A stretch of DNA of 64,000 nt from Chrysomallon squamiferum (Eukaryota > Animalia > Mollusca): the NCBI GenBank assembly GCA_012295275.1, contig CM022673.1, forward strand, positions 28,458,001-28,522,000. Direction: 5' to 3'. How positions within the stretch are numbered: position 1 is the first letter of the stretch; the number at the start of each line of letters is the position of its first letter. Made by a program: the position numbers and the translations under genes. This document shows, piece by piece, positions 5,630-49,129 of this stretch. Below the pieces are notes generated by a model. The model searched no databases, had not been told where the DNA came from, and saw nothing but the letters and a program-made list of their open reading frames with translations.

Positions 5630-8387
5630 TTATTTTAAACCACACATTTCTAGCATTTCTTGAACAAGTGTATCCCTTTTGAAGAGACTTTTGTCAAGTG
5701 ATTTTGAACTTTGTAAATTTTCTATATGAATTCCACACAGAAAAAGGGTTCCTTTTCCATAAGAAAAATAAACAACTGCAGGTTGACCTGTTTGATGGTA
5801 ATATGCAAAAATGTTTTCTTCTGTTGTAATTTCGAAGTATCTGCTTTGAGCATCGCAGAAGAAACCATCAATGACCTCTTTTGGAGGTGATGACAAACGT
5901 AAAGATGTACTAGTATTAACCATCATTGGATGCACTGGAAAATAAAAATAAAAATAAAAAATATTAAATAGCTTTGTCTCACGTTTGGAATTGGATTTAC
6001 AAAGAGTATCTACATAAAGTTCCCAATAGTATGAATTTATAAATTTCTAGAACTTTTCTGAGTTTAATGAATAAATAAATAAATAAATACATTTTTAAAA
6101 TAATAAAGTAATAATGATAATGAAAGAAAAGAAAAGGAAACAAGATATTAATACATCTGAAATACTGTACGTGGATGAAATACTGACAACTATCTCGAAT
6201 TTACGAATAAAAGGATATAACTGTTATGGTCTATGTCTACATGCAGAACCTTTCTTAGGAAATAAATACAGCTAAAAACAATCATTTCGTTATAAATTTT
6301 ATAACAAATACAGCTCAAAACATTTATTTTACACCTGTTTTCAGATTTTTGTATACATTTATAATTAAAATGGCTATCGTCGAAATGAAACGAAGGAAAA
6401 GCTGACAATTAGGAGAAATTTACCTTTGAGTTTCAGTTGTGGAAACCAGGACTGAGCAAATACAGCTGTAGCTCCAATAAAGATAATGCCGCCACCATTT
6501 TTAACAAAACTTATGATATTTGAACTTTCAAAGGAGTGAACATGTAAAGCTGCTTCATCAACAAGAACGATTACTTGTACCTTTTTCAAAAAATTGCCTG
6601 AAGTTGAATAAATATATATTTTACAATCCCATAGTAAAGGAATAAATAATACATGATGAAATATAATATCTGTAAATATCCGCAAATTCAACTGAAATTA
6701 CACATTCGACTAATTTTATACATGTATTTCATAAAGTAAGCTCCCGCAATAGGCCTGTATAGAGAATTTTAGATATATGAGTTGTGAACAGTTAACACAT
6801 AATTAATCAATCAGCTAGCATTTGTTTAATGACATTCGGTTGTTGTAATTATCTCGAGCATATACTGTCGCATATTAGGCTTACATTTTTTTTTTTTTAA
6901 AAGAATATTAAAAGAACCAGATAAAAATATATTTTTTCAAGTTACCTGAAAATCATATTTTGTCTACAGTATTATATACAATTATTGTCTTTTCAGGCAG
7001 CATAATAACGTTTTATTTGCATTTTCCAAAAGGAAAGAACTCTAACCACTGAACTACAGCATATCACGCCCCTGCATAGACTTCTCGAATAATAACAACA
7101 ACAACAACAACAACAACAATAATAATAACAAAAAGTTCTGATTAACATTAAACTGTTGTCGCTCTGGTTTGAAGATAAAATAAAAAATAAGACCAATGAA
7201 CTAGTATTCCGTAAACTTGATGTAATCATCTCCAGCACTCGTTTACTACTACATGTTGCCAAACGGTTTCAAATTATCAGTATAGCAACTTGCCCCGCTG
7301 AAGATTCTTCACATCTGAACATTCTACAGCTGTGGACGTCTTATTCACAACAGAATGCAGCAAATCGTGGAACCTGCTGGAAAATTTGTTTTCTATGTTT
7401 GCTTTCTCTGTAAACACAACAGTTTGCGAAGTCTTAGGACGAAGCGACACAAGCTGATGCGGGAAAATCTCTTGTTGAATTCCGCCAGAGTCTACTTCAG
7501 CGAAAACAAAAAATTATTACTGTTGTGTAATAGAACAATATAAACAATATGTAATATTTTATTAATTTTATAACAACAACAATAGTCGGAGGAGGAAGAA
7601 AACTAAAATAATGATAATATTTGTTAAATAACACTTCAGTACATTTTCTTATTATATTACATCGGTATTAGATATTTGAACTGAATGTAACAACGATAAG
7701 AAAGATTATGCACTGACGTCATTTCATGATATTTTCCTATATTACATACAATGGACAGTTTGTAATTTTACCTTCCCATAGACCGGAAAACATTTACCAG
7801 TTGTAGAATACTTATATTACTTTTTATGTCATTTCTTGTTTTTAATATATATATATATATATAAAATATACACAAAATAAACAAGATGAAAACGTGATAA
7901 TGAAAAACCATCTCACACTCTAAAATCACCGTCCACGTATCAGTGATTTCAATAATGTTTGCATCGAGTGTGCTTCCTTCTTCCTCGCTGTGGACTGTAA
8001 CGCAGTCGCCGGGACGAAACAAAGTGTACTCAAGAAATTCTTCGTAAAGCTGTTCGGGCGATTTTTGAATATTAATTTCCAGCCGGTTGCACAGTTCAGC
8101 CAATAACGTCTCGCGACACACCGGCTTCCCGCCCAGTTCGCAAGCAACGCTTGTAGCGATTGGTGCAAGTGACGAGTCTCGTCTCAGATCAGAATTCACG
8201 TTTAAACCAATTCCGAGAATAAAGAGTTGAGTCTGAGGACACAAGTCTATGACAAGAAAAAAAAAAAAAAATGAAATAAAAAAATAAAAGAAATAACAAT
8301 ATTAAAAGAAAAGAAAAGAAATAAAAAATAATAAAATAAAACAACAAACAAACAAACAAACAAACCAAAACAAATAAATAAATAACA

Positions 8388-8460
<73 letters not shown>

Positions 8461-10890
8461 CAGTAATAAACGGTCTGTGCACGACGACTCTTTTCTAGAA
8501 CATATTGAGAAAAAAAAAAAAAAATGTCTCGACTGTCAAACGTAAACTCGGTTCTCAAACCGAAAGCCGGTGAGAAAATGTCTTCAGACAATGAGGAGGC
8601 AAGAGGGGATGTTCTGAGTTCATTAATCTGAGAAACGTGTTGAAAATGGAAAGCGTTACCACCACTGCAGAATAACCCTTTTCAGTGACAATGTCATCAG
8701 AAACATGTTCAAATGTAGGCAGAAACAAACTTCAATAAACAGTGAAACAGAAGTGCAATGAGTCTCAAACAGGTTATAAGTGGTGCAAAGAGCCAGAAAA
8801 GAAAACAGAAGGAGAGTTATTCAGACAATAATATCCCTCTTATTTACTTTCCCAACCACCTACGTTAATTGTTCTCCTCAGTACAGGTGAAATGCAATGA
8901 ACCTTTCATTTATTTATTCTATTTATTGTGTTTATAGTTTTTGTATGTAGTTTTATGGATGTAAGTATTATTATGTAGGCTTAGCGAAATATATTTTCTG
9001 TAAAATGCGTAATTCTGGAAGGGATTAATCCAGTTTATATTATTTCTTATAGAAAACAATTATTCGGTTTTCAAACAAATCGGTTTTAGATAAACTTTCT
9101 CGAAAGCATTAGGTACCACTGTAAACAAAAACCAAAAGAAAAAAAACCTGTAGTTTACCAGTACAACTATCAGTACAACAATTAATTACACTGAGAAATG
9201 AAGTCATAGACAATGCTAATTATCTCCCTTTACAGACAGTAATAGTTTGTAAACTTTCCTCAGAACGACAATGTTGTAATAGCGGAAAGTAGCAGTAGCG
9301 TAAATCATTACATACGTTACTAACCTGGAATTACGTAATCAGGAATTTCAACAAGAAATCCAGCAAGTTTGTGACCTCTGACCCAGAGATCGTTCGGCCA
9401 TTTAATCGTAACACGCTGAAGTCCCATAGCTTCCACTGCAGAACGTGCAGCCAGAGCAGCAGCAAGTTCTTGAACAAATGCTTCAAACTGATCCTGACGA
9501 ATAATTAGAATTTATAACCAACAATGTTTGTATCAAAACTGCATTTTTTTTAAACATAATATACCTACCTATGCATGCACATTTTTATTTTCTGTGGCTA
9601 TTATATATTTTTTTATATAGTGTCATATTTATGATTTTATATCTATATTTATATATATATATATACACAGTACTTACATAAAACATATATATATATATAT
9701 ATATACAGGGTGTCCCAGAAGTCACGCACCATGAAGATTTTTATTTAGATACACATAAATTAGTAGCGAAACCCTCAACAGAGTAAAAAACAGTTTTATA
9801 AAGAGAATTGAAGTATGTATCAATGCAGAGGGCAAGCAATTTGAGCATTTGTTATGATTATTATTAATACAAATTTTATTCATATGTATCTAAATAAAAA
9901 TCTTCATGGTGCGTGACTTGTATTATGTAAGTACTGTGTAGTGAAATATTACATAGCAAAGACTACTATATATATATATAACATTCGGTCTCACACAAAA
10001 GCACATATTCAAACAGACAGGTTATAAAAGTGATAACTACATTCAGATCCAAGTCTGGTTTAAATCTGTACATTTTTGGGGTTGTTATAAAAATTTAAAT
10101 GACCTTTCACTGAGAATTAACCTTAATCGAAAAGCTGAAAACTTTAGAGAGTTTTAACTACCACTACTGACAAAATTCACGGAATAACAACCATGTCGTT
10201 ATCCTTTGAAATTGGTATGTGGAGGATTAAAGAGGCGTATATGTTTCCGCTGTTAGTGGCGTTAAAACTGTGGCCTTTGTACCCTCTGGCTTTAGTCTGG
10301 TGCTCGCTCAGTATAAAGGTTCCATGCGAGGCTCCTGGAAGGAAGAATTATCTTTATTTTGGTGTCATTTATGATAAAAACTTGAATAGTAATTTTTTTT
10401 TTTTTTTATATATATATATACTTTGAAGTATAAAGAAGTTCATTTTATAAAATATGATGTCTGATTTTGTAAAATTAGAATTCTTAATGGGGTTGTGTTT
10501 ATATAATAATAAGACGAAGAAGACGATCAACAACAATAGTATTAGTAGTAGTAACAGTAGTAATAATAATTATGAATAACATGTAGGTACTGTGTAGTCA
10601 AATATTACATAGCAAATACTACTATGGACTACTATACATATGCAGACATATAAACATTATACATAAAAAGACATTCATGCATAAGCTACACATAAAACAC
10701 ACAAATATGCATTCAAACAAGAATACATGTTAGTTAACATAAACATTTTTCATACAACCTTTTTTGCAAGCTGCAGAGCATCGTCCATAGTGGTTTTCGT
10801 TGTTCGCTTATATACAAAATGTCGTCCAATGTGATTAGTCTTCAAGTTCTTCACGAAATTTTTAATATCAAATATATCCTTATCCTCCAT
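5630..10890 (-). CDS. Biotin-protein-ligase family protein (BirA-type catalytic domain + BPL_C + C-terminal BPL_N/class I GATase-like domain), ~484 aa; 1-nt frame discrepancy at the exon 1/2 junction
   Basis: Exons (minus): 10890-10759, 10334-10192, 9493-9325, 8246-7917, 7494(or 7491)-7294, 6597-6424, 5934-5630; sum 1454 nt, one short of a multiple of 3. Motifs: LKTNHIGRHFVYKRTTKTTMDDA, HGTFILSEHQTKARGYKG, GNIYASLIL, IKWPNDLWVRGHKLAGFLVE, ILGIGLNVN, ATSV, RETLLAELCNRLE, VSLRP. Then ISFVKNGGGIIFIGA and PAVVYFSYGKGTLFLCGIHIE...CGLK, which resemble BPL_N. Confidence 0.88.
9706..9919 (+). mobile_element. Internally deleted Tc1/mariner-superfamily element (MITE-like) in an intron of the biotin ligase gene
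   Basis: Starts TA|CAGGGTGTCCC. Perfect 34-bp inverted repeat at 9719-9752 and 9886-9919. Internal 9771-9857 translates TLNRVKNSFIKRIEVCINAEGKQFEHLL*, a typical Tc1/mariner transposase C-terminus. The outer part of the right TIR is missing. Confidence 0.85.
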
Positions 10891-29660: not shown

Positions 29661-32537
29661 TCAGTCATGAGCTAGCACTGTATTAAACAAAAGGGTTTCC
29701 AAACAAGTTCCAACAATTATTCCTGAAATTCAAAAGATAAAAACCTTAGGAGTATAATAATTATGAGAAAAATAAAACTATTAAAAAGTAATCTAATTAG
29801 AAAACAAAACTGACAAAAATTATGAGATCAGTTAAGAGAAAATCATTTTATGTTAAATAGTATTATGTAACTAATCAAAAATATTTTTTGAAAACAAATA
29901 TCTTGCCAAAAAACTAGAAATCAAATCACATTTACAAAGCAAAGCAGAGTGTAACCATGGTTACAAAGATAAAATCAAATATTTTGTTTATTCTCCTTTA
30001 AACGTACTCAAGCACACAAAGAGAGCATGCACTCACAACCATGAAAAAAAGGATTAAAAAAATTAAATTGATTTTCACAAGAATGAGATCTAATGTTTTG
30101 ATTGCTATAGATTATAATTCTCTGAGAAACTTAGCCAGTCACAAATTACACATATTATTAACTCCAACATTTAAATAATTGCAAAAAAAAATACAATCCA
30201 AAAACAAGTGCAAAATGAATAGTTAACTGTTTACTAACAAAATATTAAAATTCTTTATATTTTTCAGGTAATCCATATTCTGAAACTACTACAATTAACC
30301 TGTTCTTACAAGATTACATTTTTTACCTGGATAATATTGCACAAGGTATAAATAAAATAAAATTGACTCACCTAGGGTTATGGAAAGACCAACAATATTG
30401 ATACACAATTCTCTGTCTTCATTTGGAAACTTGCTGCCGTGCAGTAACAGATAGAAAATGTTAACATAGGAAGCCCCACCAAGCAAACCAACATAAATCA
30501 TGAAGGCAGGTAAAACAGACACAGGCAGAAATTTGTACTGAAAAAACAAAACAAAAAATTAGAGGAAAAAGTTCACAAAAAAAATTGAATAAATATAAAA
30601 AATGTAATTAAGATTATAACAGAAAAATTCAATTCATTTGTTTTGAAGTTTTTTCTCTTTATTTTAAGAATCGAGTAAACAAATTAAAATATAAGGACAT
30701 TGAAAGCACAGAAATGCACATGTAGTTATTAAAAGAAATAACCAGAGTTTGATCAAATTAGTTTTTTATTTTATTTCAATGGGTTTAGCATCGACAAACA
30801 TAAACATATAGTACTTTGCAGGTTTGAATGGGTTCAGGAAGTACTTACATGTACGTCAAATATCCATATGATCATGTTGATAAATTGTAACAGAGAGAGA
30901 ATATCTACTCTTTTGATGATGAAAAGCTGAACTGAAGACCTGGACACAAACACACCAGCCTGAAAAAAACAGAAATATAATTTCAAAATTACACTCACCT
31001 TAAATTCTTATTTATGTGGCATCAGACATTTCATTCAGGACTGTACTAATACTAGAAATTTATACAGATCATATCAGATTCTGTATGTGTATATTTATAA
31101 ACTGAACATGATAACATAGATATATACAAACTATTCTGTGGATATTTACAAATGTTAACAAACCTGTATACATTTCACAACAGATACAAACTATTCTGTG
31201 GGTATTTACAAATGGTACCTGATAACACAACTGCAGTGCTGCATACAGTTCAGGACAGCCAATGTTGTATTCAGATTCAGGTCTTACTTTGGCAGCACAT
31301 CCTCGGGCAACATACTCAAACGTATACACAGCACACAGCTGAAAAAATATCAACTCATCTGTTTTGAAAATAATTAAAATATGGCAGATTTTGAAGGAAA
31401 GAAAAGAATGTATGTAAATATGGTTAACAATTTCTGCATACTGATGTGTTCCTACCTGACTATTATAGTCATTGATAATTTAATTATGGTGTTAGATTTA
31501 ATCTGCTGATTGAAAAGAATATATACGTTCAGTGATGGAAATTATAATTGTAAGAAGTGACCTGTAAAAAAAAAAAAAAAAGAATATAAATTTGACAGTA
31601 ATTTTATGTTCAACCAAAAAAAAGGAAGAAAAGGAAGAAAGTAAATAAAAGACAGAAATGACAGAGAAAGAAAATTATTGATAACACGTGGCTGGATATT
31701 GTTAAAACTGGAAAGATGACAATATCAAATACAATGGCTACAAAGAGTGCATTCTAAAAATAATGATCTTGTTACAATTTTCAGCTACCCAAAAGCTGTT
31801 TACTACTGGATGTCAAATAAATTAATTTTCTCTATCTCATTATTTTACAATAATTAACCTTTTCTCTATATTTCTCATCACTATCAGACTTAAAAAAATT
31901 TGAACTACAAATACCGGGGTAGAGAAAGTCATGACCAATATAGCAGTCATTAAAACAGCATGAGAGTCTAAATACATTGAAAAAACCACAAAATAAAACA
32001 AAGTCTACTAACATTAAATGCCAGCCAAGACACAAGTTTCAGACATCTCCAGATTCTCTTTAATTCACCTTCTTCTTGTTCGGGACTCTGAACAGAGTTT
32101 TCAAGTTCATCAATTTCGTAACGACCTGCAATTAAAAACATACCAGAGATTCAATTTTAAACAACAATACAAAAGAGTGTTAACAAAGATTCACAAACCC
32201 AAACAGATGTCTAGCAAAAAAGTGATAATAAAATAAAACAGCATGTATTATATAATAACTTAAACACAGAAGATCAAAGCACATTAAAACATTCAGATGA
32301 CAAGATGTTCTGACTGTATAAAACTCTGACTGTTTACCTGAATCACTTTTGAGAAGTGGCTTGTTTTCGTCTGGTGGCTCATTGATCATCAGCTGTGTGG
32401 ATTCAGGCACCCGAATGATGAGGAAATAGGCAACCCAGTACAAGAGAACAACAGGAGTTGTCAGCAGAAAAGCATATCTGAAATTTTATTAAAATGTTTG
32501 TCAAATGAAATGAAAAAACATTACATTAAATCTCAAA

Positions 32538-38745: not shown

Positions 38746-49129
<10,384 letters not shown>

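Follow-up and report, generated by a model that had tools for sequence, protein, structure and literature searches.

Does an animal carry a second biotin ligase, beside HLCS, whose domains stand in the reverse of the order described for other eukaryotes? This question is raised by a gene in a 64,000-nucleotide stretch of the genome of the mollusc Chrysomallon squamiferum (contig CM022673.1, positions 28,458,001 to 28,522,000; hereafter the window), which a first-pass annotation had read from the letters alone as a BirA-type ligase core followed by a C-terminal BPL_N domain. Biotin ligases fall into three recognised structural classes, and the eukaryotic extension is described as N-terminal (PMC12582158, PMC3199775); a 2011 survey places the catalytic part of eukaryotic ligases at the C-terminal end (PMC3199775). 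The reversed-order ligase is a fourth arrangement, found in molluscs and a brachiopod beside HLCS. Full-text literature searches, with subscription journals mostly outside their reach, returned no description of this family.

Domains of the window protein

The BirA-type core spans amino acids (aa) 1-278 of the window protein and the BPL_N domain aa 280-483. Analyses that could not take the spliced sequence were run on a stand-in from Gigantopelta aegis, XP_041367711.1 (P0001), a 495-aa protein that RefSeq names 'bifunctional ligase/repressor BirA-like'. It was the one protein found among 120 candidates in a search with exon 4, it is 50% identical to the window protein end to end (E=3e-166), and tblastn with it matched all seven window exons in order. 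Exon 3 scores above the gathering score of Pfam BPL_LplA_LipB (E=1.1e-5) and aligns with K172, D176 and K183 of Escherichia coli BirA; K123, N126, D127, K134 and GIGLN are all present in the window protein. TIGR00121 matched the Gigantopelta protein at E=5e-22, with 78.6 bits under a cut-off of 83.1. In an AlphaFold2 model of this orthologue (predicted local distance difference test 83, predicted template modelling score 0.85), residues 1-279 resemble solved biotin protein ligases (BPLs) with Z 27.6 (root-mean-square deviation (rmsd) 2.5, 253 aligned), and the same model gave Z 13.3 against LipB and Z 20.0 against the BPL-like protein 3bfm. We found no N-terminal winged helix-turn-helix (HTH): the window protein starts at the core, Pfam finds no HTH family in the Gigantopelta protein, and the structural match of its model begins at residue 64 of Staphylococcus aureus BPL. 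The first-pass reading of a compact core standing first and lacking an HTH is confirmed.

For the C-terminal part, exon 7 alone gave a weak match to Pfam BPL_N (E=0.007, under the gathering score) and the Gigantopelta protein one of 0.11. The domain lies C-terminal to the ligase and above the gathering score in Potamilus (E=1.1e-10) and Solemya (2.5e-7), and it is intact in the brachiopod Lingula anatina (E=2.6e-66, residues 801-1058). A profile of 13 mollusc-clade C-terminal parts, in which neither the window protein nor Lingula is included, recovered the first at 4.6e-27 and the second at 5.3e-24. One built only from 62 prokaryotic BPL_N proteins gave the window protein 32.3 bits, with 23.3 bits scored on aa 417-461 in exon 7, whereas 200 shuffles of the C-terminal part scored at most 4.1 bits. 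HHalign aligned the mollusc C-terminal part with prokaryotic BPL_N over 224 columns (99%, E=3.8e-18), and residues 279-495 of the Gigantopelta model matched class-I glutamine amidotransferase (GATase) folds at Z about 15, among them the plasmodial pyridoxal phosphate synthase glutaminase 2abw (Z 15.3, rmsd 3.1, 180 aligned) and 1kxj (Z 15.2). By sequence profile and predicted fold, the C-terminal domain of the window protein is confirmed, beyond chance, as having a BPL_N/class-I GATase fold, as the first-pass annotation had proposed. The profiles, the fold comparison and the full-length relatives described below likewise place BPL_N after the cap, so that the reversed order it had claimed stands. 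The triad of this domain is complete in Lingula (Cys888/His1017/Glu1019); across 14 mollusc-clade rows the Cys is kept in none, the His in three and the Glu in 12, and the window protein has Gly/His/Glu.

Class III ligases (yeast Bpl1 and human HLCS) have three modules in common with the mollusc protein, namely the BPL catalytic domain, the cap and the GATase-fold BPL_N. The mollusc protein has them in reverse, with BPL_N after the cap and no extension N-terminal to the catalytic domain. At 483 aa it is also shorter than the yeast (690 aa) and human (726 aa) class III ligases, and, in the Gigantopelta annotation, it stands beside a separate HLCS. The GATase Cys is absent from the mollusc proteins, whereas yeast keeps C89/H215/E217; the yeast N-terminal domain is reported to have a GATase fold with its triad kept, to show no GATase or glutaminase activity in vitro and to have a proposed role in substrate recognition (PMC12582158). 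Class I ligases (Mycobacterium tuberculosis BirA, Pyrococcus horikoshii BPL) and the compact ligases of the protists Planoprotostelium (P0019) and Microstomoeca (P0026), nearest to it in our tree, are like the mollusc protein in core fold (Z 27.6), in catalytic residues and in having no HTH; compared with both groups, it has an extra C-terminal domain of ~205 aa and a GRGR loop changed to ARG followed by A, S, Y, T or M. It differs from class II BirA ligase/repressors in lacking their N-terminal winged HTH, and from class I glutamine amidotransferases, whose fold its second domain shares, in that the Cys-His-Glu triad is broken in molluscs.

Range and descent of the family

A phmmer search of 1.84 billion representatives returned 19 proteins at E<=1e-30, of which 15 were looked up, among them 12 named molluscs, Lingula and the amoebozoan Planoprotostelium. 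The mollusc genera are Gigantopelta, Patella, Haliotis, Solemya, Argopecten, Bulinus, Candidula, Tegillarca, Saccostrea, Potamilus, Pinctada and Mercenaria, with Pomacea lower in the list. Relatives are present in gastropods, bivalves and the brachiopod, a range that rests on 21 hits looked up among the top 150; other animals may be among the remaining 129. Logan contigs of 2.9-4.4 kb encode full-length proteins of 468-513 aa with both domains; we infer that these contigs represent spliced transcripts running through both domains in these relatives. The databases list the proteins under automatic names. One of them is 'Biotin-protein ligase N-terminal domain-containing protein' in UniRef, and the ESM Atlas has a cluster of 53 members, mostly from molluscs, that is probably this family. 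Word searches recovered few members: exon 7 alone found none among 185 candidates, and an alignment just two among 113 matches. In metagenomes, the best 80 of 551 loci matching the Lingula protein match its ligase core only, with no BPL_N or biotin/lipoyl domain among those 80, and when part of the Lingula BPL_N was used as a genome-scan query none of 94 matches had the domain.

The Lingula protein itself (XP_013422157.1, P0017, a 1059-aa model) has a kynurenine-3-monooxygenase-like flavin adenine dinucleotide domain and a biotin/lipoyl-carrier domain in residues 5-500, ahead of the ligase and BPL_N. The carrier domain matches Pfam Biotin_lipoyl at E=0.002, below gathering, and has an EAVKT motif. 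Should the model be one transcript, the acceptor may be part of the ligase itself; a merged gene model is the other possibility. Neither the monooxygenase nor the biotin/lipoyl part had a tblastn match in the window.

The descent of the core was assessed in a tree of 65 catalytic domains (IQ-TREE, LG+C20), hand-picked from 262 after a 178-row FastTree; it is midpoint-rooted, its bootstrap is not fully settled and it contains no HLCS sequence, none having come up in any of the searches. The labels 'compact eukaryotic' and 'prokaryote-type' used here are our own and rest on few named rows. The window and Gigantopelta sequences group at 100/99, as do the 14 mollusc-clade rows (100/99), and the mollusc rows join Lingula and P0062, a fragment sister to Lingula, at 98/94. 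This group falls inside a 41-row clade (100/97) with the ligases of the choanoflagellate Microstomoeca and of Planoprotostelium, and 20 prokaryote-type rows stand apart from this compact clade. The branching of bivalves and gastropods is largely the expected one, in keeping with vertical descent within molluscs. Four compact ligases are fused to avidin domains (P0032, P0042, P0051 and P0091; Pfam Avidin E 2e-19 to 3e-14), three C-terminally and one N-terminally, suggesting that the compact clade handles biotin in other ways besides ligation.

The first-pass annotation had left two origins side by side, an ancient, patchily retained lineage and an old horizontal acquisition. Judged from sequence, an old eukaryotic lineage fits better than direct transfer from bacteria, because the core shares the 100/97 clade with a choanoflagellate and an amoebozoan ligase, apart from the prokaryote-type rows. 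An old eukaryotic compact ligase would have gained a C-terminal BPL_N before molluscs and brachiopods split; Lingula would keep the ancestral motifs, and molluscs would later have remodelled the biotin loop and the GATase site. A different history, in which the gene reached the mollusc-brachiopod ancestor by horizontal transfer and not by vertical descent with many losses, bears on origin only and is a real possibility, if one that we doubt. The core would then derive from a protist or a bacterium and BPL_N from a stand-alone bacterial gene, and matches of the Lingula BPL_N to bacterial BPL_N proteins that stand alone do reach E=1.9e-46. That molluscs and Lingula are the only named animals among the 21 proteins looked up also speaks for transfer, but further animals are possible among the other 129 of the top 150 hits; so does the choanoflagellate row, which within the compact clade does not come out as sister to the animals, though the branching there is not settled.

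A further comparison is with the stand-alone prokaryotic BPL_N proteins (Chlamydiota, Verrucomicrobiota, Alphaproteobacteria). They are homologous to the mollusc C-terminal domain over its full length, as the HHalign match indicates, and differ from it in being mostly separate open reading frames of 220-370 aa; their GICAG motif is intact, a motif for which the search pattern selected. In 16 of the 64 parts of the collection we found 122 prokaryotic loci with a BPL_N motif, 80 of them with flanks of up to 3 kb, and none is fused to a ligase, which also weighs against transfer. The sole adjacent pair among the 122 has BPL_N first and birA directly downstream: in a Bdellovibrionota locus (L142:1641-3330), a stand-alone BPL_N gene overlaps, and lies directly upstream of, a biotin ligase gene, which is the class III order in split form.

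The biotin-binding loop

Residues were counted over 21 mollusc-clade rows, five of them assigned by the tree only; the near-duplicates P0154-156 and the fragments P0022, P0023 and P0077 were left out. Positions are given in E. coli BirA numbering, checked for K172-G186 and, in the loop, against Aquifex R40. The equivalents of K172, N175, D176, K183, G186, G205, G207 and N208 are invariant in all 21 rows, as are those of T90 and R116; Q112 and W123 are each kept in 19 of 21, the window protein having F at W123. Residues H133 and R172 near the active site are invariant and specific to the family. The suggestion in the first-pass annotation of a different cofactor finds little support, since the biotin-pocket positions are largely kept.

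The loop arginine is the exception. At the R118 position Arg occurs in none of the 21 rows (A in seven, S in five, Y in four, T in four and M in one), whereas 49 of the 53 rows of the compact clade have it, as do 175 of the 178 others and Lingula, whose loop is canonical (GRGRRGRTW). Five different residues at one position look like relaxed constraint. The G115 position is Ala in 19 of 21 rows. The window protein reads ARGY in place of GRGR, with A60 at the G115 position and Y63 at the R118 position. In alignments with Aquifex BPL and its R40G mutant 3efr, at weak E-values and ungapped across the loop, Y63 falls on R40 and G40, respectively. BirA G115S and R118G are reported to have lower affinity for biotinyl-5'-AMP, which is the basis of BioID, and TurboID includes R118S (PMC9120650). 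The same loop arginine is therefore replaced in BirA* (R118G), TurboID (R118S), Aquifex R40G and the molluscs, five of whose 21 rows have Ser as in TurboID. The mollusc change differs from the engineered ones in being natural, kept across molluscs and accompanied by an added domain; the window gene has Tyr, and promiscuity is a prediction by analogy. Four compact-clade ligases (P0019, P0024, P0027 and P0052) also have non-canonical biotin loops, and the loop may have been remodelled more than once in this clade.

Gene model and neighbours

The gene consists of seven exons on the minus strand (Table 1), with their order set by tblastn and separated by six introns of 424-1078 bases, the number that the first-pass annotation had counted. 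Five introns are GT-AG and one GC-AG, and all junctions are in phase except that of exons 1 and 2; read with one N at that junction, the spliced coding sequence yields 483 aa with no internal stop. The motifs on which the annotation had relied, KWPND (9403-9389), KLAGFLVE, GIGLNV, VSLRP (7450-7436), FVKNGGGIIFIGA and PAVVYFSYGKGTLFLCGIHIE, all lie where it had placed them on the minus strand. Exon 5 may have its 5' end three bases further out (NAGNAG acceptor). The donor of intron 5 (7293-6598, minus strand) is G|GCAAGT, and three other donors start GTT. A merger of two neighbouring genes is ruled out, as the boundary between cap and BPL_N falls inside exon 5 and full-length relatives hold both domains. 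Contamination from a symbiont is ruled out as well, since the gene has six spliceosomal introns, microsatellites are present and the DNA polymerase gene beside it is of animal type. The window consists of animal DNA and is rich in AT, with a GC content of 0.23-0.35 per 2 kb. Three RNA runs from the same study had no contig on the ligase exons among the pieces shown, which says nothing either way.

Table 1. Exons of the ligase gene and other features of the window.
Feature	Positions	Strand	Description
Ligase gene	5630..10890	-	Seven exons, six introns
Exon 1	10759..10890	-	ATG at 10890; aa 1-44; TTMDD motif; one base short as assembled
Exon 2	10192..10334	-	aa 45-92; biotin-binding loop QTKARGYKGHSF; A60, Y63 (10281-10279)
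Exon 3	9325..9493	-	aa 93-148; KWPND (K123, D127), catalytic K134; Pfam BPL_LplA_LipB E=1.1e-5
Exon 4	7917..8246	-	aa 149-258; GIGLNVN strand, adenylate-binding region, start of C-terminal cap; 63% identity to Gigantopelta protein
Exon 5	7294..7491	-	aa 259-324; end of BPL_C cap (VSLRP) and start of BPL_N; followed by GC-AG intron
Exon 6	6424..6597	-	aa 325-382; nucleophile-elbow region of BPL_N, NGGGIIFIG; Gly366 where Lingula has Cys
Exon 7	5630..5934	-	aa 383-483; TAA stop 5632-5630; second half of BPL_N; GIHIE, with triad His and Glu kept
DNA polymerase gene	13511..about 19300	+	Family B; Pfam DNA_pol_B_exo1
Battenin-like exons	about 31200..32480	-	Presumed CLN3/battenin likeness
SH3 exon	47399..47809	+	Start of SH3 domain (Pfam SH3_1 E=3.5e-5); unrelated gene

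The exon 1/2 junction had passed without remark in the first-pass annotation. As assembled, exon 1 is short by one base and the frame reaches a stop at codon 53, which counts against a working enzyme. The family could be real and this copy a pseudogene or null allele, the missing base being genuine; we consider this very improbable. The gap sits in a homopolymer, a run of six T on the plus strand (10760-10765), and an independent DNA run, X1, has an extra T behind 10759 that restores the phase. Because X1 carries exactly the T needed in that same homopolymer, an assembly slip probably explains the missing base. In each of the other six exons the frame is open and the phase is kept. The X1 contigs differ from the window at dozens of sites, and two of the three exon differences shown are synonymous, 27 further differences lying outside that count.

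The presence of a separate HLCS was checked in the annotation table of the nearest relative, Gigantopelta. Its hologenome host annotation lists ctg818-2.2-1 as 'Biotin--protein ligase' (K01942, HLCS) and ctg809-2.9-1 as 'biotin--acetyl-CoA-carboxylase ligase', a BirA-named gene on one contig with POLD1 and a battenin-like gene; both ligases have a partner in a second peltospirid in the orthologue table (PMC7895826). A third entry in that annotation, ctg1886-0.2-1, is described only as 'Biotin-protein ligase, N terminal' and would be either a fragment split from HLCS or a BPL_N gene standing alone (PMC7895826). In the window, a family-B DNA polymerase gene stands head to head with the ligase gene, its putative start lying ~2.6 kb from the ligase start. 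We take it to be the delta polymerase from its motifs, together with the POLD1 synteny in Gigantopelta. The battenin-like exons resemble CLN3/battenin, although Pfam gave no confirmation on single exons. The Gigantopelta contig that matches the window region carries a battenin-like gene as well (PMC7895826). The separate HLCS entry in that annotation and the POLD1 synteny support the earlier proposal of a second ligase beside HLCS.

Possible roles of a second ligase

What might such a protein do? The reading to which we give about an even chance, drawn from sequence and from analogy with other ligases, is that of an active, biotin-adenylating second ligase with a loosened hold on its intermediate and a non-catalytic docking domain. 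It would make biotinyl-5'-AMP from biotin and ATP, and the mollusc enzyme would hold this intermediate loosely, as predicted from the absence of the R118 Arg and by analogy with BirA G115S and R118G. The C-terminal domain would dock proteins for biotinylation, by analogy with the substrate recognition proposed for the N-terminal domain of the yeast and human ligases; the acceptors would be other than, or besides, the carboxylases served by HLCS, whose housekeeping task would not be that of this protein. Because the protein starts at the core without an extension, it is likely to be cytosolic.

Besides the assembled frame of exon 1, several points weigh against this proposal. Some compact ligases vary in the same loop (G115 is not Gly in 6 of 53, R118 not Arg in 4 of 53), so the loop change alone is no proof of leakiness, and the 21 mollusc rows are not independent because all descend from one ancestral loss. 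The bulky Tyr of the window protein need not have the effect of a Gly or Ser, and other residues of the family could compensate for the change. In addition, ctg809-2.9-1 is equated with XP_041367711.1 by name and by synteny, not by sequence.

If the loop changes are compensated, the protein would be an ordinary, specific second ligase for biotin carboxylases that shares the job of HLCS, for example for cytosolic acetyl-CoA carboxylase or in one tissue. All catalytic residues are kept, the two domains are those of class III ligases, the Lingula loop is canonical and the gene is retained across bivalves and gastropods; we nevertheless think it somewhat unlikely, given that an arginine found in 175 of 178 other rows is gone from every mollusc-clade row and that HLCS is a separate entry in the Gigantopelta annotation. 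It is quite unlikely that the substrate adenylated is another carboxylic acid, for instance an analogue of biotin or a different cofactor, or that the protein serves as a sensor or sink of biotin or biotinyl-AMP without transfer to protein. The loop has changed together at two positions, whose residues grip biotin and the adenylate, H133 and R172 are fixed around the site, and an avidin domain is fused to four of the related compact ligases, but the equivalents of S89/T90, Q112, R116 and the GxGxN strand are kept and the fold is far closer to BPLs (Z 27.6) than to LipB (13.3) or 3bfm (20.0).

The proposal of a loosely holding, docking ligase has a stronger form, which we consider unlikely: the molluscs would have a natural proximity-labelling enzyme, in which the BioID arginine was lost at the root of the phylum and biotinyl-AMP is released, or loosely channelled, to docked proteins. 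If true, this would mean a biotinylation mark on non-carboxylase proteins in animals. The natural R118-type variants of marine and freshwater invertebrates are candidates for low-temperature proximity-labelling tools. The family is also a natural experiment on the role of the GATase-fold domain, which here lies at the other end of the protein and has a complete triad in Lingula but a broken one in the molluscs, and it raises the question of what the targets of a second biotin ligase in an animal are.

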